Shown here one piece after another: positions 15,940 through 24,616 of a stretch of DNA of 64,000 nt. The notes under the pieces are model-generated. The model saw only the letters and a program-made list of their open reading frames with translations. It did not search any database and was not told the DNA's origin. The stretch's first letter is position 1, and each line of letters opens with the position of its first letter. A program made the position numbers and the translations under genes. The stretch is from a virus (lineage: Duplodnaviria > Caudoviricetes), in the IMG/VR virus record IMGVR_UViG_2974670102_000001, positions 96,001 to 160,000 of that record, one strand, 5' to 3'.

Positions 15940-16340
15940 TCCTTCCTGAAGAGAAGAAAAGGCTATGTAATTGAAAAGTCATAGCATCCATATAGATAGT
16001 ACGGCCGGGGCAGACTTTCAATTACATGGATCGGGACCAAAACGAGCCAAAAATCGCAGTTTTTCGCTACTTTCCTGACTTTTGTCGATTTTTCACACTT
16101 TTCTTCATTAAAAACACGTGTAATCAGGGCTTGACAGCGGCCGTATGTCCCATATACATTACGCGCACGCTATATCGCGCAATATGACGCGCGCCCAACA
16201 GGAGGATATGATGCACTATGACGAACATTACGCGCGTGCTGGCCGGTCGGCATAAGCTCGCAAGACCGATAAATAAAGGTCGCATCATGTTGACCCAGTT
16301 CGACGTTCCGTGTTAGCATCTGTTCATCACTGACAACCCG
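15940..16340. other. AT-rich divergent intergenic region, candidate replication origin / early control region
   Basis: Strand switch point; A/T tracts spaced about 10 bp apart (16049-16114); short repeats ACATTACGCGC x2. Confidence 0.45.
16131..16160 (+). promoter_or_regulatory. Sigma70-like early promoter
   Basis: TTGACA-18 nt-TACATT with AT-rich upstream sequence. Confidence 0.6.
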
Positions 16341-16351
16341 AGAGGTGCAAC

Positions 16352-16531
16352 ATGAAAAACAAACTGCAACGTCTTCCGTGTATCGTGTCGATCAAGAACG
16401 AGGGCAAGTACGCAACGCTCTCGCTCATCACTGGCAAAGACAAGTTCGAGGTCATGGTCGATCCGAAGGCGCTCGGTCAACTGCTGATGGGCACGAACCT
16501 GCTCACGTACACGCAACACACGAAAATCTAA
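16352..16531 (+). CDS. Small hypothetical protein (59 aa, not in ORF track)
   Basis: MKNKLQRLPCIVSIKNEGKYATL...; GAGAGG RBS; stop abuts the next RBS. Confidence 0.65.
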   Translation: MKNKLQRLPCIVSIKNEGKYATLSLITGKDKFEVMVDPKALGQLLMGTNLLTYTQHTKI

Positions 16532-16543
16532 GGAGGTGGCTCA

Positions 16544-17065
16544 ATGGCTACGAAAACTGGTTCGCGCTCTGCACTCCTGCCGTCCGTGACGCAGACACCG
16601 GCTCCCAAGAAGCCGAAGTTGAGGACCCCGGTCTACGTCGACCGCGAGAACCGCGTGCTCACCGTCGACTCGCGCGTCAAGACCTACCTGCGTCCGCTGT
16701 CCAAAGGCATCAGCGAAAAGGGCACGGTCGTCGCCATCGACGAGCGCGGTCTCTCGGTCAAGATCGACGGCGTGCGTGAGGTTCGCGAGTACACGGTCGA
16801 GGAAGCGGCCGAGAAGCTGATCTTCACGGGCATGAAAAAGAAGAAAGTTCGTTACGCGGAAGATTGCTCGACCGACGAGCGTGCCCGGGCATCCGTCGAG
16901 ATCGGGCGCTCCGGAATTCTGGTCGATCTGTATCTCGACGACCGGTCTGTGACGATTAATATCGAGCCTGAGCACGTTATGCGCGCGCTCGAAGGTCGTC
17001 CCCTAGGCGGGGTGATCCCGCAAGCACGCGCTCGTGTTCGCACCTACTCGGCGGTCTCGGAATGA
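16544..17065 (+). CDS. Hypothetical protein
   Basis: 173 aa, AGGAGG RBS. Confidence 0.75.
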   Translation: MATKTGSRSALLPSVTQTPAPKKPKLRTPVYVDRENRVLTVDSRVKTYLRPLSKGISEKGTVVAIDERGLSVKIDGVREVREYTVEEAAEKLIFTGMKKKKVRYAEDCSTDERARASVEIGRSGILVDLYLDDRSVTINIEPEHVMRALEGRPLGGVIPQARARVRTYSAVSE

Positions 17066-17412
17066 GCACGCGTAGCAACAAGAAGATGAGTCGTGGCCTC
17101 AACGGGGAAGTAATCGATCACAAGCGTTACATCAAGACTTACCGCTATCAGGTGATGCGGGTCATTCGCGACATCGAGAACGGGAGCGTGAACGAAGAGG
17201 ACATGGCAAAGCTTCGCAACTTTTGTCAAATGTCGATCACGTTGATGGAACACGCGCCGATTTCGCAAATTCAGGCAGCGTGGCGCGACACCGAGATCAT
17301 GGCGTTCGCGCACGATGCAGTTGACGACGTGCAGGACACCGGTGTAGTATTGCGCGGTCCCGATCAACCGGCTCGGTCAGGCTGCATCCCCGAGTCCTTT
17401 CGCAAGGAGTGA
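17062..17412 (+). CDS. Hypothetical protein
   Basis: ATGA coupling. Confidence 0.7.
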   Translation: MSTRSNKKMSRGLNGEVIDHKRYIKTYRYQVMRVIRDIENGSVNEEDMAKLRNFCQMSITLMEHAPISQIQAAWRDTEIMAFAHDAVDDVQDTGVVLRGPDQPARSGCIPESFRKE

Positions 17413-17738
17413 ACATGGAGAACGAACAACGCGTTGAGTTTGTCGAAGACTGGGCATCGGTGCTTCCCGAGCGCATTCGCAACCATAACAAGGACACCAT
17501 CGATAAAATCTCGATGGTGCTCGACGACGACAGTGTGTATGCGAAGCTGCACATTCCGATGAAGGAAGGTGAGTACGTGCAGGAGGTGGATGTCACGCAC
17601 CTGCATCCCGAACTTCGTGCGCGTCTCGCGCTCTCCCTGTTTCGTGACGCACTGGAACTCACGCGCAAGGCCCGACGTGAAGGCCGCCGTCAAGTCCGCA
17701 AGCTCATCAACGAAGCACTCAACCCCATGTACGACTAA
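17409..17738 (+). CDS. Hypothetical protein
   Basis: AAGGAG RBS; start at 17409 or 17415. Confidence 0.7.
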   Translation: MNMENEQRVEFVEDWASVLPERIRNHNKDTIDKISMVLDDDSVYAKLHIPMKEGEYVQEVDVTHLHPELRARLALSLFRDALELTRKARREGRRQVRKLINEALNPMYD

Positions 17739-17749
17739 GGCAGGAAACC

Positions 17750-17896
17750 ATGGAAGATCAACCCATCAAACTCACGGAAGCTGAGACCGAACGCTTCCTC
17801 GAAACACTGAAATCGCCGCCCCCGCCGAACGCGGCACTCGTCGAGGCGATGCGCAAATACCGGGAACAGGAGGAAGCAAGTGGCCGAAATCAATAA
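17750..17896 (+). CDS. 48-aa peptide resembling the C-terminal half of DUF1778/TacA antitoxins (not in ORF track)
   Basis: MEDQPIKLTEAETERFLETLKSPPPPNAALVEAMRKYREQEEASGRNQ; AGGA RBS; fills the gap between flanking genes. Confidence 0.7.
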   Translation: MEDQPIKLTEAETERFLETLKSPPPPNAALVEAMRKYREQEEASGRNQ

Positions 17897-18125
17897 CGAC
17901 CGCTACATGATCTATCAGGACAGCGACACGGACTACTGGCTCGCGTACATAAAGCTGGGCCCGGACCCGGGCATCACGGTCAACGTCACGCACGTGCCTG
18001 AGCCCAATCGCGAGACCTTCGTGAAGCTGCTGCGTGATCAGATCATCCGGGCCGCAGAATCCGCGTTCAAGCGCGGGTCCTATGACGCAAAACTTGGAGT
18101 GCGTATGGCGCTCCGACTCGACTAA
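17880..18125 (+). CDS. Hypothetical protein
   Basis: 81 aa, GGAGG RBS. Confidence 0.7.
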   Translation: MAEINNDRYMIYQDSDTDYWLAYIKLGPDPGITVNVTHVPEPNRETFVKLLRDQIIRAAESAFKRGSYDAKLGVRMALRLD

Positions 18126-18134
18126 GGAGGACGC

Positions 18135-18413
18135 ATGAAAAAGTTTATCGCACTGGCGGTCGTCGCCGTCACCCTCGCTGGGTGCGGCCCGGAGCCCGAC
18201 ACCCCGCTCGGCGGTGTCCAATACACAGAAGGTCGCTTCCAAGTCGCACGCGTCGGCGTCTTCCGCGACGAACTCGCGTACGGTGACAAGCGCGGCATCT
18301 ACACGTTCGTCGACACGAAGACAGGCAAGGAGTACGTCGGTGTCTCGGGCATCGGCATCGCGGAGACGGGTTCGCACTCCAGCGGCAAGACCCAGACGCA
18401 GGACGAGCGATGA
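18135..18413 (+). CDS. Lipoprotein
   Basis: MKKFIALAVVAVTLAGC lipobox. Confidence 0.8.
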   Translation: MKKFIALAVVAVTLAGCGPEPDTPLGGVQYTEGRFQVARVGVFRDELAYGDKRGIYTFVDTKTGKEYVGVSGIGIAETGSHSSGKTQTQDER

Positions 18414-18634
18414 GCGCTACTCCACTCTTTCTCGACGACGCTCCGCACCTGACGCCACTCGGTTTCGCAAATCGTCTCTACGTCGATAGCGTCCAGCACT
18501 CGATGCTGCGCCTGAATCGCGAGCGTACTGCCTACCATGATATGCCCGTCTACGGTGTGGATGAGGTTCAGAAACTTCTGCGCTACGCACAGGAAATGCG
18601 TGATCTGGCGGACCGTTTGCAGAGTGGGCGCTGA
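18410..18634 (+). CDS. Hypothetical protein
   Basis: ATGA coupling. Confidence 0.6.
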   Translation: MSATPLFLDDAPHLTPLGFANRLYVDSVQHSMLRLNRERTAYHDMPVYGVDEVQKLLRYAQEMRDLADRLQSGR

Positions 18635-19071
18635 TGCCGATCTACAGAGAAGGTATCGATCTTGACCAGTATGTCTCGACTTGGGACGAACCGGACAGCG
18701 TTGAGGGTTTAGGCTACTGCTACCGATACACGGACGTGAAGTACAGTCCGGGTGTAGACGAGTGGGATGATCCGCTTCCACGCTCGCCCGGGACCCACTT
18801 GGGCATTCACGTGCACGAATACAAGGTGCTGCGTGAAACCAAGTGCGGCTTCTGGTTCTACGACACTTACGAGGGCCGTGAGCGCTTCATCAACAACTCG
18901 TGGACCAAGAAGCATGCGCTCCGTTCGAAGGAAGCGGCACGCGATTCGTATATCGCGCGCAAGGAAAAGCAGATCACGCTGCTCAAGCGTCAGATAATCG
19001 ACGCCGAAGAGTTCTTGCGCATGGCCCGTGACCAACAAGCGCGCGGCGTCGCCCAATCTATCTGGAGGTAA
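18634..19071 (+). CDS. Hypothetical protein
   Basis: 145 aa, TGATG coupling. Confidence 0.7.
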   Translation: MPIYREGIDLDQYVSTWDEPDSVEGLGYCYRYTDVKYSPGVDEWDDPLPRSPGTHLGIHVHEYKVLRETKCGFWFYDTYEGRERFINNSWTKKHALRSKEAARDSYIARKEKQITLLKRQIIDAEEFLRMARDQQARGVAQSIWR

Positions 19072-19072
19072 C

Positions 19073-19483
19073 ATGGGTCTGGAATACTACGCACTGAACC
19101 ACGCACGCGCCGAAGCCGTGTCGTTGGGTCGCCTCGGCTTTCGCTTCGACGCGTTGCTGAACGTGACGGACCAAGCGGAGTTCGAGCGTGCGTGTTTCGA
19201 ATCGCTGGTCGCGTCCGGTTTCGACTATGCACGCGCTGCCGAGTTCGCACACGACTTCTACGATTTCGGGGCCGACGAAATATGGAACGACGGACAGGAC
19301 GTGTACGAATATTTCTCGTGCTACCGCGTGGTCGACGCGCTCGACCACGAAGAGATCGGGAGCAAGCTCGGTGACTACTTCGTGCGGTCCGGTATGCTTC
19401 CGGTCGAGGCCCTGAGTCTGCGTCACCCGCGCGTGCAGATTGTGCTGGGCCGAGCCAAGATCACGCAACCCAATTTGAATTGA
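19073..19483 (+). CDS. Hypothetical protein
   Basis: MGLEYYALNH..., GGAGG RBS. Confidence 0.7.
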   Translation: MGLEYYALNHARAEAVSLGRLGFRFDALLNVTDQAEFERACFESLVASGFDYARAAEFAHDFYDFGADEIWNDGQDVYEYFSCYRVVDALDHEEIGSKLGDYFVRSGMLPVEALSLRHPRVQIVLGRAKITQPNLN

Positions 19484-19487
19484 CCTG

Positions 19488-19516
19488 TTGACGGTGTAGT
19501 AAAGACAGCGTATAGT
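19488..19516 (+). promoter_or_regulatory. Sigma70 promoter driving the tRNA island
   Basis: TTGACG-17 nt-TATAGT, 9 nt before the first tRNA. Confidence 0.75.
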
Positions 19517-19525
19517 TCAGGACTC

Positions 19526-19602
19526 GGGCGGTTAGCTCAGGGGTTAGCAGCGTTCGGCTCATAACCGAGGGGTCGCGGGTTCGAATCCCGCACCGCCCAC
19601 CA
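19526..19602 (+). tRNA. tRNA-Met or Ile2 (CAT)
   Basis: GGGCGGT/ACCGCCC acceptor, loop CTCATAA, TTCGAAT, CCA. Confidence 0.9.
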
Positions 19603-19658
19603 CACAGAATAGGAGGCAATCATGAGTAGATTCTAGTGAACCAACTGGAGGTGTTCTC

Positions 19659-19946
19659 ATGAAAGCAAAAGCGTTTTACCATCGTGTTTGTAACTACGGC
19701 CCGGGCGGCTACCACTGCCCGTGCTGTGGTCCCGCACCGAGCATGCGTCGTAAGGAGCGTCAGCAACAACGACGCAAGTTCCATCGACTGCTTGACGTTC
19801 TGGACAAGTTTGACACCGAAGTCGAAATCGAATACGACAACCTCGTGCTCAACGATTTCGACGACGAGCGTCACGACTACTACAACGGCTGGGGCGGTGA
19901 TCCCAGCCTGCACGATGAGTGGAAGGATTGGAAGAAGGCAGCTTGA
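19659..19946 (+). CDS. Small protein with GPGGxxCPCC motif, basic then acidic
   Basis: 95 aa, GGAGG RBS. Confidence 0.7.
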   Translation: MKAKAFYHRVCNYGPGGYHCPCCGPAPSMRRKERQQQRRKFHRLLDVLDKFDTEVEIEYDNLVLNDFDDERHDYYNGWGGDPSLHDEWKDWKKAA

Positions 19947-20010
19947 CCGTACTGCACCGCAAAGCCTTAGATGCGGTGTGCCGCGAGAACGTGAGCGGTG
20001 CAGTGCACCT

Positions 20011-20096
20011 GCCCGGGTGGCGGAATTGCTAGACGCGACGGACTCAAAATCCGTTGGCCCTAGGCCGTGTGGGTTGGAGTCCCACCCCGGGCACCA
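20011..20096 (+). tRNA. tRNA-Leu (CAA)
   Basis: GCCCGGG acceptor, ACGGA-CTCAAAA-TCCGT, variable arm, CCA; atypical T-loop TTGGAGT. Confidence 0.85.
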
Positions 20097-20098
20097 TC

Positions 20099-20123
20099 GC
20101 GAGGGTGGCGAAATTGGTAGACG
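20099..20123 (+). pseudogene. 5' fragment of an interrupted tRNA-Leu-type gene
   Basis: GCGAGGG-TG-GCGAAATTGGTAGACG; acceptor strand pairs with 21300-21306. Confidence 0.8.
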
Positions 20124-20177
20124 TGGCGAAATTGGTAATCCCCAATTTTATTTCAGTAACCAACGTGGAGAAGATTC

Positions 20178-20888
20178 ATGCTAGAACTGAAAAACGACAT
20201 GCCGATTTTGGCCAAGAAGTTGTCCGGTGTGTATGGTCACGAGATTCGTATCATCGGGCCGTACGTGGACAAGAGAAACGGGCGTAAGCTCGTGGACATA
20301 AAGGGTGCGCCCCGTTCCTCGGGAATTAACAAAACCGTGCAGCTTGCACGTGCGCGCCTAGAAGTAAAGCTTGGTCGACGCCTTGTCGATGACGAGACTG
20401 TCGACCACAAGAACAACGATTGCACGGATGACCGTCCGAGCAATCTTCAGTTGCTGACGCACGCAGAGAACTCGGCAAAGCAGACGAAGGAAACGCGTAG
20501 TCGCTCGGCTGAAGCGTCTCGCACCGCCGAGGCGCGTTCCGCTAACAGCAAACGCAATACAGGTGAGAAGAATCAAGCTGCCGTCCTTACCGATACTGAA
20601 GTGAAAAGGTTTCGCACACTTTTCAGTAAGGGTAAAATGACGGTCAAGCAAATCGAAGATGCGTCGGAGTTGACAAATCGTTCGGTTCGTAATATGCTTG
20701 ACGGCCTGTCGTACAAAACGGCAGGCGGACCGCTCCGCATAGCAGGCTCTGTTGGTCGCGCATCCTCGTTGTCAGAGAAGCACAGGCAGTACATAGCGAA
20801 TCACGCAGAACTGTCAGCCGCGCAGATTGCAGAAGAACTTGACGTGAGTAGGTATGCAGTGATACGATACCGACGCACGCTTAACTAA
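20178..20888 (+). CDS. HNH homing endonuclease with C-terminal HTH-like region
   Basis: LGRRL...ETVDHKNNDCTDDRPSNLQLLTHAEN. Confidence 0.85.
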   Translation: MLELKNDMPILAKKLSGVYGHEIRIIGPYVDKRNGRKLVDIKGAPRSSGINKTVQLARARLEVKLGRRLVDDETVDHKNNDCTDDRPSNLQLLTHAENSAKQTKETRSRSAEASRTAEARSANSKRNTGEKNQAAVLTDTEVKRFRTLFSKGKMTVKQIEDASELTNRSVRNMLDGLSYKTAGGPLRIAGSVGRASSLSEKHRQYIANHAELSAAQIAEELDVSRYAVIRYRRTLN

Positions 20889-20889
20889 C

Positions 20890-20976
20890 GGGAGTGTGCT
20901 GGAATTGGTAGACGGAACGGATTTAGATTCCGTAGGCCGCAAGGTCGTGTGGGTTCGAATCCCATCACTCCCACCA
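20890..20976 (+). tRNA. tRNA-Leu (TAG)
   Basis: GGGAGTG/CACTCCC, ACGGA-TTTAGAT-TCCGT, variable arm, CCA. Confidence 0.9.
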
Positions 20977-21006
20977 CTACACGAAATTTTAGTTAAAGGT
21001 ATTTAA

Positions 21007-21246
21007 GTGCCGCCAAGCATCGAACAGGTAAAACTTATACTCAGATCAGCAGCATTGTCTCCGAGCAGCAGTCAGTTGTCTATTTCTGGCTTTGACGATA
21101 TCATGAAGGCAGCAGAGGAAGCCTATTGTGGAGATAGCCGAGCCATGCTCACAAACGTCCGGGAAATTGCCTTGCAGTTTCCGGACAATACGATGATGAT
21201 GACGATTTTGGCGCTGTATTCTGAATCCATGCTGAGTATGCATTAA
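21007..21246 (+). CDS. Hypothetical protein within the HNH cassette
   Basis: 79 aa, visibly lower GC, AAAGGT RBS. Confidence 0.55.
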   Translation: MPPSIEQVKLILRSAALSPSSSQLSISGFDDIMKAAEEAYCGDSRAMLTNVREIALQFPDNTMMMTILALYSESMLSMH

Positions 21247-21260
21247 GCGCAATCCCCACA

Positions 21261-21310
21261 GTCCTGCCGGTCGAAAGGCCGTGAGGGTTCGAATCCCTTT
21301 CCTCGCACCA
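21261..21310 (+). pseudogene. 3' fragment of the interrupted tRNA-Leu-type gene
   Basis: Variable arm GGTC-GAAA-GGCC, GAGGG-TTCGAAT-CCCTT, TCCTCGC-ACCA. Confidence 0.8.
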
Positions 21311-21404
21311 CTTTGGATTGTAGGCGTAAATCGAGCGGGACTTCCCCACCCACTCGATTAGGTATGGTACACCTTATAGACCGTCGCCTACAATCCAAAG
21401 TGGT
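21307..21404 (+). ncRNA. Putative structured RNA closed by a perfect 20-bp stem
   Basis: ACCACTTTGGATTGTAGGCG / CGCCTACAATCCAAAGTGGT with internal hairpins. Confidence 0.5.
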
Positions 21405-21477
21405 TGTGGTAAAGATGTAGTGTGCTTTGCCTTTGAAGCGCGGGCGCTGTGGTTCTCAGGCCACGACAGCGCCCAAC

Positions 21478-21553
21478 GCCGGTTTAGCTCAGTTGGTAGA
21501 GCAGCGCCCTTGTAAAGCGCAGGTCACGGGTTCGAGCCCTGTAACCGGCACCA
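21478..21553 (+). tRNA. tRNA-Thr (TGT)
   Basis: GCCGGTT/AACCGGC, loop CTTGTAA, CCA. Confidence 0.9.
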
Positions 21554-21577
21554 CTAAACAATAACAACGAGGTTGTG

Positions 21578-21916
21578 ATGAATACGCATGAGGCTTACGA
21601 GATCGTCGATAGACTGACGCCGGTATCGGTCAGGAACCTCGAAGACGCGTACGTACGGTTCATGGAAATGGCGCTTCTGGTCGATCCACACCCGGAGACT
21701 GAAGACCGGGCCACACGGGATCGTGAGACATACACTGAATTCCTGCTACCGCCCGACGAGAACGGCAATCCCGTGATTTCGGTCCCGGGCATGCACCAGT
21801 TTCTGTCCAAGATCACGGGCCATCCACTACAAACCTGCGTAGCCTTCGACTATGTTGACTTCCATCGCGTGCACGGCACGACGGTAGAGGACGCGGAACT
21901 CGCTGGCTACGTTTAA
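21578..21916 (+). CDS. Hypothetical protein
   Basis: GAGG RBS. Confidence 0.7.
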   Translation: MNTHEAYEIVDRLTPVSVRNLEDAYVRFMEMALLVDPHPETEDRATRDRETYTEFLLPPDENGNPVISVPGMHQFLSKITGHPLQTCVAFDYVDFHRVHGTTVEDAELAGYV

Positions 21917-21925
21917 GGACGGACC

Positions 21926-22138
21926 ATGGAAGAAGACGCATACAGGTTCAGTGTGGCAGCGCTCAAAAGCGAGTACGACGCTGAACTGCTCGAACTGCGC
22001 AAGACAGTGCTTGAAGGTCGCGGTGACGTTGCTGGGTTTATCAAACTCAAGGAGTCGCTTGACTCAAGGCTGAAGGACCGCGTTAGCGCGGTTACTGGCG
22101 CACGCAGTCAAACACAGAACAAGTTGCTGTACAACTGA
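21926..22138 (+). CDS. Hypothetical protein
   Basis: 70 aa, AAGGA RBS. Confidence 0.65.
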   Translation: MEEDAYRFSVAALKSEYDAELLELRKTVLEGRGDVAGFIKLKESLDSRLKDRVSAVTGARSQTQNKLLYN

Positions 22139-22144
22139 ACAAGA

Positions 22145-22221
22145 CTCCGCTTAGCTCAGCCCGGTAGAGTACGTGATTTGGGATCACGGGGTCGCAGGTT
22201 CAAATCCTGTAGCGGAGACCA
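22145..22221 (+). tRNA. tRNA-Pro (TGG)
   Basis: CTCCGCT/AGCGGAG, CGTGA-TTTGGGA-TCACG, CCA. Confidence 0.9.
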
Positions 22222-22239
22222 CACAACATAGGAGGTGTC

Positions 22240-22590
22240 TTGGAAACCACTTACGACTACAGCCTTACGTTCGACCTGACTGACATCATCGTGTTCGTTC
22301 TGATCGCGATCATGATCAAGATGGTCATCGACATCGTGCGTGAGCGCATGCGAATACGCAGGCTCCGACGCGACATGGGGGCAAACGGCAATCTTCCGTG
22401 CATCACGATCTCGGGTAACGACGATGTGTCGATCTCGGGTCTTGTGTACGAAGGGCGGCCCATCCCCTCGGTCGATATCAAGAACAAAGCGCTGTTCGTC
22501 GACGGTCAGTTCAAGCGCCGCCTCGCCCGCAACAGCCGTGTCTACAACCGTGGCATCGGAATCTTCGCGGACGGCAAGTACATGGGGTAA
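22240..22590 (+). CDS. Membrane-anchored hypothetical protein
   Basis: One TM segment (IIVFVLIAIMI), AGGAGG RBS. Confidence 0.7.
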   Translation: METTYDYSLTFDLTDIIVFVLIAIMIKMVIDIVRERMRIRRLRRDMGANGNLPCITISGNDDVSISGLVYEGRPIPSVDIKNKALFVDGQFKRRLARNSRVYNRGIGIFADGKYMG

Positions 22591-22594
22591 TACC

Positions 22595-23059
22595 ATGCGC
22601 AGTATCTTTCACATTTCGGTCGGCTCCGATAACTGGAACCCGACCGAGGACGAACTTGCGGGCATCGTCCGCAAGTTCAAAGAACTGGAAGCAAAGCAGG
22701 GTCAGCGTCAACAGCTTCCCGATACCCGCAAGATCATCCACATCAGTGTGGGTGCTGAGGATTGGACGCCTACCGCAGACGAACTGTTGGCCATCGTCAA
22801 TCAGTTCCAGTATGCAGACCTCGATCCGCTCGGTGGGTGGATTGCGACGCGTCACGGTATCAAAGTCACTGACATCGAGACCGCCGCACAGCCCACGCTG
22901 GTGGTGAACGGCACGACCCACGAAAGCGAGGCTCGTGCTTCGCTACGTCAGGACTCCATCGACCGGCTTGAGGCCATCCGCGAAAACCTGCGTACGTTCA
23001 AGCTGAGCACGCTCGATGTCGACACACTGATCAATCGGTTGTCGACGTATCAACTTTAA
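22595..23059 (+). CDS. Portal clip-segment paralog (tandem repeat), 154 aa
   Basis: HISVGAEDWTPTADELLAIVNQFQYADLDPLGGWIATRHGIKVTDI matches portal HLTAGDDKWTPTGEELNALVRTFQQAEYDPLGGWVSTRNAVQAVDI. Confidence 0.8.
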   Translation: MRSIFHISVGSDNWNPTEDELAGIVRKFKELEAKQGQRQQLPDTRKIIHISVGAEDWTPTADELLAIVNQFQYADLDPLGGWIATRHGIKVTDIETAAQPTLVVNGTTHESEARASLRQDSIDRLEAIRENLRTFKLSTLDVDTLINRLSTYQL

Positions 23060-23080
23060 CCGAAAAGCTTAGGACAACAA

Positions 23081-23512
23081 ATGAAACAACTCAACACGCA
23101 ACGCCGCTTCGAATGCCTGACACCGGAAGGTACATGGGTCTCCGTGCACTGGGAGCAACTGGAACCGGGCGACATGATCCGCCTCCTGCCCGCTGTCGGC
23201 ATCACCGAGGACGTTCCGCCGACCGACGTATTCGTCGTCATGGACACGCCTACCGTGAACGTGCGTTCGGTGAACGAAATCCGTGCCGAACAAGCAGCCG
23301 CAGCGCAGCGTGAAGCGCTGGCCAACACGGAAGGTGTCGATGCTATCCAAGCAGCGCAGCGCGATATCGACGCAGCCGTCGAGCAGATGAAGCCGGTAAC
23401 AGAGGCCGTGGCAAAGGTGGCGCACGCAGTAAAGGCCAAGAAGACGCCGAGCCCGAAGGTTCCGGCACCGGCACGCAAGCCGCGCACGCGCAAGGTCGCG
23501 ACGCCGAAGTAA
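23081..23512 (+). CDS. Hypothetical protein with basic C-terminal tail
   Basis: 143 aa, AGGA RBS. Confidence 0.7.
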   Translation: MKQLNTQRRFECLTPEGTWVSVHWEQLEPGDMIRLLPAVGITEDVPPTDVFVVMDTPTVNVRSVNEIRAEQAAAAQREALANTEGVDAIQAAQRDIDAAVEQMKPVTEAVAKVAHAVKAKKTPSPKVPAPARKPRTRKVATPK

Positions 23513-23521
23513 TGGCCGTGT

Positions 23522-23529
23522 AGTAAATA
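23522..23529 (+). promoter_or_regulatory. AGTAAATA motif
   Basis: Intergenic, upstream of tRNA-Tyr. Confidence 0.65.
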
Positions 23530-23624
23530 GGTTGGGTGAGCGCGGAAACGCAATCCCCAATTTGAGTTGTACAGAAAACTAGTGCTGGTTGCCGGATGCA
23601 GTTGTTACCCGGAACAGCACACGC

Positions 23625-23714
23625 GGATGGGTGCCCGAGTGGCTAAAGGGGGCAGACTGTAAATCTGCCGGGCCTCAGTGTCCTACGTTGGTTCGAATCC
23701 AACCTCATCCACCA
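23625..23714 (+). tRNA. tRNA-Tyr (GTA)
   Basis: GCAGA-CTGTAAA-TCTGC, long variable arm, CCA. Confidence 0.9.
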
Positions 23715-23767
23715 GAACATAAGCAGGAGCCCTGAGCATCAGGGCATCAGGGCAACAAGGAAAAGCA

Positions 23768-24049
23768 ATGCCGATTAAGCCGCTGTATGACAAGGTGGTG
23801 GTGCGTACCACCGACACAGACCGTACGACTGTAGGGGGCATCGTGATCCCCGCTGCTTCGCTCAAGGCGAATCAGGCTGTCGTGGTCGCTGTCGGTGACG
23901 GCCACCTTATGCAAGACGGTACGCTTCGACCGCTGTCCGTGAAGGCAGGCGACGTTGTGTACCTCTCGCATGAAGGCTCCGAGATCGAAGTCAACGGTGA
24001 AAAGCTTCGCGTCTTCATCGAAGGCGATCTGATAGGAGTCCTCAACTAA
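23768..24049 (+). CDS. groES: Co-chaperonin GroES
   Basis: IKPLYDKVVV...TVGGIVIP...VVAVGDG...VKAGDVV. Confidence 0.92.
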   Translation: MPIKPLYDKVVVRTTDTDRTTVGGIVIPAASLKANQAVVVAVGDGHLMQDGTLRPLSVKAGDVVYLSHEGSEIEVNGEKLRVFIEGDLIGVLN

Positions 24050-24058
24050 GCAGTACAT

Positions 24059-24135
24059 TCCCCGTGAGCAAGCTAGGCGACTGCACCGGACTGTTAATCC
24101 GGCATTGCGTGGTTCGAATCCACGACGGGGAGCCA
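24059..24135 (+). tRNA. tRNA-Asn (GTT)
   Basis: TCCCCGT/ACGGGGA, CCGGA-CTGTTAA-TCCGG, GCCA. Confidence 0.88.
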
Positions 24136-24139
24136 ATCA

Positions 24140-24242
24140 TGAATAGGTCATGAGTAAGGCAGATCACTCAATCCGGAAACTCAAAAGGTAATCCGGGTAG
24201 CAATGAGCATCCTGTAAGCCGAGACGATGATTGACTTATTCA
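24140..24242 (+). ncRNA. Putative structured spacer RNA
   Basis: 11-bp closing stem TGAATAGGTCA/TGACTTATTCA; fills the Asn-Phe spacer. Confidence 0.4.
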
Positions 24243-24244
24243 GA

Positions 24245-24320
24245 GCGCGGGTAGCTCAGTTGGTAGAGCACCGGACTGAAAATCCGGGTGTCGCTGGTTC
24301 GAGTCCAGCCCTGCGCACCA
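24245..24320 (+). tRNA. tRNA-Phe (GAA)
   Basis: CCGGA-CTGAAAA-TCCGG, canonical D and T arms, CCA. Confidence 0.92.
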
Positions 24321-24326
24321 GCGTTG

Positions 24327-24436
24327 TGATCGAGTGAAAATCGTAGGAAGGGGCCGATTACCCTGACCGCAATCTGTAGGTGGACCGGCTGGCCCTCATC
24401 CTGCTAGTGTAGATTTTTCCCATGTGGTTTCGATCA
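24327..24436 (+). ncRNA. Putative rod-like structured RNA
   Basis: Nested stems TGATCGA/TCGATCA, GAAAATC/GATTTTT, GTAGGA/TCCTGC, GGGCC/GGCCC. Confidence 0.4.
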
Positions 24437-24539
24437 ACTAATCATTGTGTGGTTGTAGCGCACTAAATCAGACGGCCGGGCTCCGGAGCCCGCGTACCAT
24501 ACCACCCCGGATGGAAACCGTTGAATATTCCGGGTCGAT

Positions 24540-24616
24540 AGGGGTGTAGCCAAGTTGGTTAAGGCAACGGATTTTGATTCCGTCATGCGTAGGTTCGAAT
24601 CCTACCGCCCCTTCCA
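24540..24616 (+). tRNA. tRNA-Gln (TTG)
   Basis: AGGGGTG/CGCCCCT, ACGGA-TTTTGAT-TCCGT, CCA. Confidence 0.9.

Follow-up and report, generated by a model that had tools for sequence, protein, structure and literature searches.

An orphan TacA/DUF1778-type antitoxin tail encoded by a probable Burkholderia jumbo phage is a candidate mimic directed at GNAT toxins

GNAT/DUF1778 toxin-antitoxin systems have so far been linked to persistence. Their antitoxins, which include TacA, AtaR and KacA, belong to type II modules in which a ribbon-helix-helix (RHH) domain, responsible for dimerisation and DNA binding, is joined to a C-terminal region that holds the toxin. In KacA, this region consists of helix alphaC, a linker (71-PPAP-74) and helix alphaD, and it wraps the toxin; a short beta-strand, betaB, pairs with a toxin strand, and residue R77 is required for neutralisation (PMC6698736). 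Two sets of solved complexes contain the C-terminal region without the remainder of the antitoxin: 7ak9, in which TacT3 is bound by the TacA3 C-terminal peptide (36 aa) alone, and 6gtq/6gtr, in which AtaT is bound by the AtaR C-terminus in a 46-aa construct. In light of these structures, an isolated tail makes sense as a toxin binder. Pairing between GNAT toxins and their antitoxins is mostly cognate-specific, with one case of cross-neutralisation in Klebsiella at 34% identity (PMC9431474). One Burkholderia cenocepacia TacT acetylates Gly-tRNAGly almost exclusively (PMC9177977).

Orphan antitoxins of phages are a recognised class of counter-defence. For instance, Dmd of phage T4 acts against RnlA and LsoA (cited in PMC10100988). 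Orphan phage antitoxins resembling DarG counteract DarTG1, a counter-defence role that has been shown by experiment (PMC11825919). TacA genes have been reported from phages as well. ORF106 of cyanophage S-CREM1 is an orphan TacA gene that its authors propose to counteract host toxin-antitoxin systems, although the host lacks TacAT (PMC9964418); orphan phage TacA genes therefore need not match a toxin of the known host. TacA genes of the Klebsiella phages vB_KpnM_VAC13 and VAC66 are listed among the phage 'TA system' genes (PMC10100988). The idea of an orphan phage TacA as a device against toxin-antitoxin systems is thus published for other phages, where the function is a proposal. Here we describe a phage gene that encodes the tail of such an antitoxin and nothing else.

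The window, a stretch of 64,000 nucleotides, covers bases 96001-160000 of a 262,653-bp IMG/VR virus record rated 100% complete by CheckV. The source is almost certainly a Burkholderia jumbo phage, reported to be lytic, whose sister phage is BcepSaruman (263,735 bp). The gene of interest, referred to below as the tail gene, is an ATG-start ORF for 48 aa (Table 1), established from the ORF list and by direct reading of the sequence. The original prediction had quoted a peptide with a ribosome-binding site at this place, and both are real: the ORF contains the quoted sequence and is preceded by a Shine-Dalgarno-like AGGA. It had also presented the peptide as missed by the ORF track, whereas the exact protein is already on record in NCBI, UniRef and nr. 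The family assignment, too, is already automatic for the homologue in BcepSaruman, gp199, a 48-aa protein that is 85% identical to the peptide and bears the UniRef label 'DUF1778 domain-containing'.

Table 1. Coordinates of the tail gene, its protein segments and its neighbours, numbered from the first base of the window
Feature	Position	Strand	Basis
TacA/DUF1778 toxin-binding tail, stand-alone	17750..17896 (incl. stop)	+	48-aa ORF; Pfam TacA1 26.3 bits; NCBI/UniRef entry
AGGA, Shine-Dalgarno-like, 4 nt upstream of ATG	17742..17745	+	Direct sequence reading
Residues 3-38, TacA1-matching stretch	17756..17863	+	Pfam match to profile positions 44-79 of 80
Residues 6-8 (I-K-L), aligned with KacA betaB strand	17765..17773	+	Alignment A3; strand inferred, not a strand in the monomer model
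Residues 10-21, first helix, KacA alphaC equivalent	17777..17812	+	AF2 model
Residues 23-26, PPPP linker, equivalent to KacA 71-PPAP-74	17816..17827	+	Alignment A3; P23 and P26 invariant
Residues 28-46, second helix, KacA alphaD equivalent; unconserved past residue 38	17831..17887	+	AF2 model; L014 comparison
109-aa ORF upstream of tail gene, same-strand cluster	17409..17738	+	Family search: none
81-aa ORF downstream, 17-nt overlap with tail gene; fast-evolving, not GNAT	17880..18125	+	ORF list, family searches, L014 comparison
Four sigma-70-like promoter matches, clustered, ahead of small-ORF run	15971..16319	+	Consensus matches only

The tail gene lies inside a run of small same-strand ORFs, tightly packed or overlapping, that spans roughly 16350 to 19483. 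By the ORF list, the small genes of this cluster all follow a pattern of overlapping starts. The 109-aa ORF upstream ends with a stop codon at 17736-17738, 11 nt ahead of the ATG of the tail gene; searches of it returned no RHH match and no family. The run is closed by an island of nine tRNA genes (19526-24616), specific for Met, Leu (two), Thr, Pro, Tyr, Asn, Phe and Gln. A further sigma-70-like promoter match (10 of 12 positions; TTGACG, 17-nt spacer, TATAGT) occupies window positions 19488-19516 on the plus strand and ends 10 nt before the tRNA-Met gene at 19526. The island begins 1.63 kb downstream of the tail gene, in agreement with the distance of about 1.6 kb given in the original prediction. 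The functional complementarity that had been suggested for the two is not supported: tRNA-Gly is absent from the nine-tRNA island, whereas Gly-tRNAGly is the almost exclusive target of the B. cenocepacia TacT tested in PMC9177977, and it is not obvious that extra tRNA genes would counter the acetylation of charged tRNA.

Pfam family TacA1 (PF08681, also DUF1778) matches the peptide with an E of 7.3e-6 and 26.3 bits, where the curated cut-off is 21. The match is confined to the C-terminal half of the profile, positions 44-79 of 80, and the RHH domain, which takes up profile positions of about 1-43, is absent from the peptide. In an alignment with full-length antitoxins (A3), the phage ORF begins exactly at the boundary between RHH domain and tail. 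Both the likeness to the C-terminal half of DUF1778/TacA and the loss of the RHH domain had been anticipated, and the HMM search agrees with each. Every relative tested likewise exceeds the TacA1 cut-off, with a match to the profile stretch that the peptide covers, and a full-length relative, P0010 (90 aa), spans positions 1-79. No model in NCBIfam or PHROGs matches the peptide. A profile built from six tail-only proteins (alignment A4) was run against the PDB, and its top six matches are all DUF1778 antitoxins (E 8e-6 to 0.017): TacA3 (7zg5_C, 7ak9_C) and AtaR (6gtq_C, 6ajm_C, 6ajn_C) with E 8e-6 to 6e-5, and KacA (5zgn_A) with E 0.017. By sequence comparison, these results support genuine homology between the peptide and the toxin-binding half of the TacA/AtaR/KacA antitoxins.

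The structural prediction is consistent with this assignment. An AF2 model computed on alignment A3 reaches a mean pLDDT of 90.9 and contains two helices split by the PPPP linker, a predicted layout that resembles the alphaC-PPAP-alphaD arrangement of KacA. A Foldseek search with the 48-aa model returned no match at E <= 0.001; the matches to TacA, AtaR and KacA tails have E values of 6.6-9.2, the model being too small for significance. Four of the eight matches listed are TacA2, the AtaR C-terminus, KacA and the TacA3 C-terminal peptide, with rmsd values of 1.4-2.5 A over 28-39 columns.

The phage appears to encode no toxin that would fit this tail. Searches with three GNAT models of Pfam (PF00583, PF13508 and PF13673) found none in the window, nor anywhere else in the 262,653-bp genome, while each of the same models matches in all 14 control genomes. 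With filters off, a profile made from 18 TacT-like toxins of Burkholderia gave a best E of 0.46 against all six-frame ORFs of at least 40 aa. The original prediction had noted the lack of a recognisable GNAT toxin in the window, and this now extends to the rest of the genome, where a cognate toxin might have been located. The tail itself is present in a single copy, as judged by a tail profile run over the phage genome and by a six-frame whole-genome TacA1 search, whose one match is the tail gene (24.4 bits). The tail gene is thus supported as an orphan in a complete phage genome.

The part of the gene that encodes the motif is strictly conserved. A metagenomic contig of 1,127 bp (L014) is collinear with window positions 17673-18807 at 90% nucleotide identity, and the first 108 nt, or 36 codons, of the tail gene (17750-17857) are nucleotide-identical in it; past residue 38, the sequence of the tail gene is fully divergent. 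This conserved segment coincides with the Pfam match. The dN/dS ratio of the tail core is not computable because there are zero substitutions relative to L014. In the neighbouring 81-aa gene, 40 of 82 codons differ (28 non-synonymous, 12 synonymous), and the two genes that follow show 5/13 and 1/5 non-synonymous/synonymous differences. Recent recombination could be an alternative source of this pattern of identity, but BcepSaruman gp199 has kept its reading frame, with three substitutions within the motif. A remnant in decay would hardly be conserved so strictly in just the stretch that codes for the motif.

Orphan tails are also found in two unrelated families of phage-like metagenomic contigs (L002-L006), which encode the proteins P0011 (48 aa) and P0012 (68 aa). 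These tails are surrounded by small same-strand genes with PHROG matches (MazG-like, HNH, phosphohydrolase and several of unknown function), and no GNAT occurs within 6 kb of them. A megablast of the tail-gene region against a phage collection, which may lack near relatives, gave no match, and tblastn of the peptide against phages gave weak matches only. The Alishewanella match among these corresponds to an H-NS-like protein and a match to an RSF1 protein has no TacA1 match; both were rejected. A search for longer homologues of the peptide found none, a broader alignment (A5) matched 349 stretches in viral contigs of which 0 were confirmed by tblastn, and tblastn of a full-length TacA (P0017) retrieved six E. 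coli phage records only.

In bacteria, tail-only proteins are found in company with toxins. They match TacA1 at positions of about 49-79 only and have no RHH domain. Two of them, P0090 and P0068 (61-63 aa; contigs L113, L114 and L115), are encoded directly upstream of GNAT genes with a 4-nt overlap, and the GNAT partners in the three contigs are 167-171 aa long. For the third cellular protein, P0054 (L112), the nearest GNAT gene follows after about 1.4 kb, with a further small ORF in between. Since tail-only proteins adjoin GNAT genes in bacteria, a tail without a DNA-binding domain would be a natural toxin partner. Tail-only genes were observed between carA-like and carB-like carbamoyl-phosphate synthase genes (L112:4001-4189, L113:4001-4692, L115:1222-1919), with GNAT partners in L113 and L115, and this interval looks like a recurrent insertion spot.

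The tail is found in further architectures. It is fused to several N-terminal domains other than RHH, namely PF01954, NikA-like PF21983, HicB (PF05534) and PhdYeFM (PF02604), which suggests that it may act as a portable toxin-binding module. Other proteins consist of two or three tails in tandem without a DNA-binding domain: P0003 (L007:279-683), P0007 (L008:6001-6426), P0004 and P0008 (L009:289-684). They score 48-57 bits against TacA1, in 2-3 stretches. A 391-aa membrane protein encoded in IMG/VR contigs (L012:3080-4255; L010, L011 and L013) has a tail-like motif near its C-terminus, with a TacA1 score of 16.1 bits that is below the cut-off.

Candidate targets are present in Burkholderia. 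TacA1 is encoded in 25 of 95 Burkholderia species genomes, and a GNAT gene adjoins nearly all of the full-length TacA1 loci examined. One example is B. cenocepacia NCTC13227, where the gene for a 91-aa TacA overlaps that for a 162-aa GNAT. Gene content of this kind supports the presence, in the host genus, of toxins of the matching family. The closest Burkholderia tail, of the L110/L111 type, is 44% identical to the peptide (16/36; pairwise E 2e-8) and occurs in only 2 of the 95 species genomes. Against the TacA of B. cenocepacia NCTC13227, which represents the commoner Burkholderia type, the peptide has no BLASTP-level match.

Taken together, the tail-only homology, the orphan status, the conservation and the occurrence of the toxin family in Burkholderia make one reading the best: the peptide may be an antitoxin mimic that disarms a tRNA-acetylating GNAT toxin of the host. 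We give this explanation about an even chance of being correct. The peptide would presumably be made in the infected Burkholderia cell and would bind a GNAT toxin of the TacT/AtaT/KacT type, encoded by the host or by a mobile element. It would do so in the manner of a cognate tail, on the surface of the toxin, so that acetyl-CoA binding and/or dimerisation of the toxin may be blocked. After phage takeover or host shut-off, the labile host antitoxin would be lost and the toxin otherwise freed. Bound by the peptide, the toxin would probably be unable to acetylate aminoacyl-tRNA, and a stop in translation would be averted. As the peptide lacks an RHH domain, we propose that it neither represses nor regulates the operon or operator of the host toxin-antitoxin system. 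We infer that GNAT toxins are a threat to the present phage. The PADLOC defence models include no GNAT/DUF1778 system, and literature searches found no paper showing phage protection by GNAT/DUF1778 systems.

Other explanations were weighed against this proposal. It is possible, though unlikely, that the tail has been repurposed and binds a protein other than a TacT-type toxin, for instance a GNAT enzyme with a housekeeping role or some different protein of the host or the phage, or that it persists as a conserved remnant of low function. The occurrence of the motif in other architectures, such as the 391-aa phage membrane protein with its sub-cut-off TacA1 score, would fit such a change of partner, as would the lack of TacAT in the host of the published orphan-TacA phage S-CREM1 (PMC9964418). 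The position of KacA R77 also points this way: counted by hand from the PPxP linker, the residue of the peptide at this position is apparently alanine and hence not conserved. However, two of the three cellular tail-only proteins (P0090 and P0068) immediately precede a GNAT gene and nearly all full-length Burkholderia TacA1 loci examined adjoin one, which argues for a toxin as the usual partner of the tail, and a remnant would not be expected to confine its strict conservation to the motif-coding part.

The peptide might instead bind GNAT toxins in competition between genetic elements, its targets being toxins by which resident prophages, plasmids or co-infecting phages enforce addiction or exclusion, and not a dedicated anti-phage defence of the host; we regard this as quite unlikely. 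Some tails do reside on mobile elements. P0007, a two-tail protein, is encoded on an element with a TrwC relaxase (L008), where it adjoins a RelE/HTH pair. In a Burkholderia chromosome (G048, L087:4197-5153), a 63-aa tail-only TacA1 protein, named 'TacA 1-like antitoxin' by NCBI, follows a 240-aa DUF6166 protein and adjoins inovirus-like genes for coat and ssDNA-binding proteins; no GNAT was seen near this tail. Orphan antitoxins are enriched in the leading regions of plasmids (PMC11541004), and the patchy distribution of TacA1 (25 of 95 Burkholderia species genomes) is as expected of accessory or mobile loci. Competition between elements differs from disarming a host toxin solely in who owns the toxin, however, and the present evidence does not separate the two.

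It is very improbable that the tail is the antitoxin half of a two-gene module of the phage itself, with the overlapping 81-aa ORF or another non-GNAT phage protein as the toxin. The 17-nt overlap and the order of the two genes would be usual for an antitoxin followed by its toxin, and the 81-aa gene is fast-evolving, with its 28 non-synonymous against 12 synonymous codon differences. However, a GNAT would be twice as long as the 81-aa product, searches of Pfam, PHROGs and PADLOC assign that product to no family, its leads in the Atlas stay below the 0.9 threshold, overlapping starts are general among the small genes of the cluster, and the orphan tails of L002-L006 have other downstream neighbours. 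A chance match of a short helix-proline-helix peptide is scarcely credible: although a search of the PDB with the single sequence put protein A repeats first, a chance result of scores of 5-11 bits each summed over repeats, and although the weak tblastn matches in Alishewanella and Ralstonia phages turned out to be unrelated, the Pfam score exceeds the curated cut-off for the peptide and for each relative tested, DUF1778 antitoxins are the top six PDB matches of the profile search in which protein A is lost, the pairwise E to a Burkholderia TacA tail is 2e-8, and the start of the alignment falls exactly on the boundary between RHH domain and tail.

If the peptide is indeed an antitoxin mimic, the consequences go beyond this phage. 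A wider and more tentative view, which we consider doubtful, holds that tail-only TacA peptides form a modular type of counter-defence protein that is widespread among phages and plasmids, that GNAT/DUF1778 systems are abortive-infection defences which phages have to disarm, and that tandem-tail proteins such as P0003 and P0007 serve as multi-specific toxin 'sponges'. What is added here to the published idea of orphan phage TacA genes is that the phage keeps the toxin-binding tail only, that its genome is toxin-less and that tail-only GNAT partners exist in bacteria. Should the peptide neutralise a GNAT toxin from Burkholderia, it would become the first example put to the test of a phage turning a trimmed homologous antitoxin on toxins that acetylate tRNA. 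Such a result would also speak indirectly for phage restriction by TacAT-type systems, a function that is not yet established in this large family. The tail gene could influence the host range of Burkholderia cepacia complex phages considered for therapy, and a natural inhibitor of 38 residues would be a handy tool for the study of GNAT toxins.

Among known systems, the closest in sequence are the GNAT-RHH type II modules of TacA, AtaR and KacA. The peptide corresponds to the same C-terminal region, in which a short strand is followed by two helices with a PPxP linker between them. Unlike these antitoxins, it has no RHH domain, so that dimerisation, DNA binding and autoregulation are not expected of it, and unlike their genes, the phage gene has no GNAT toxin adjacent or anywhere in the genome, its carrier being a jumbo phage reported to be lytic. 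The bacterial tail-only TacA1 proteins (P0090 and P0068; L113-L115) share the minimal architecture without RHH, however they are cognate partners whose genes overlap GNAT genes by 4 nt, whereas the phage gene is an orphan. The peptide can also be grouped with S-CREM1 ORF106, the genes of VAC13 and VAC66, and BcepSaruman gp199, all of them toxin-less TacA-like genes of lytic phages, with the likeness to the S-CREM1 and Klebsiella genes drawn by description only. Dmd and the DarG-like antitoxins are more distant in kind. Dmd shares no homology with the antitoxin of the host, the DarG-like proteins act as enzymes, and the functions of both were shown by experiment, whereas the present peptide is a homologous, non-enzymatic fragment whose function we infer. 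What would unite all three is that a lytic phage has the antidote of a host toxin-antitoxin system but not the toxin.
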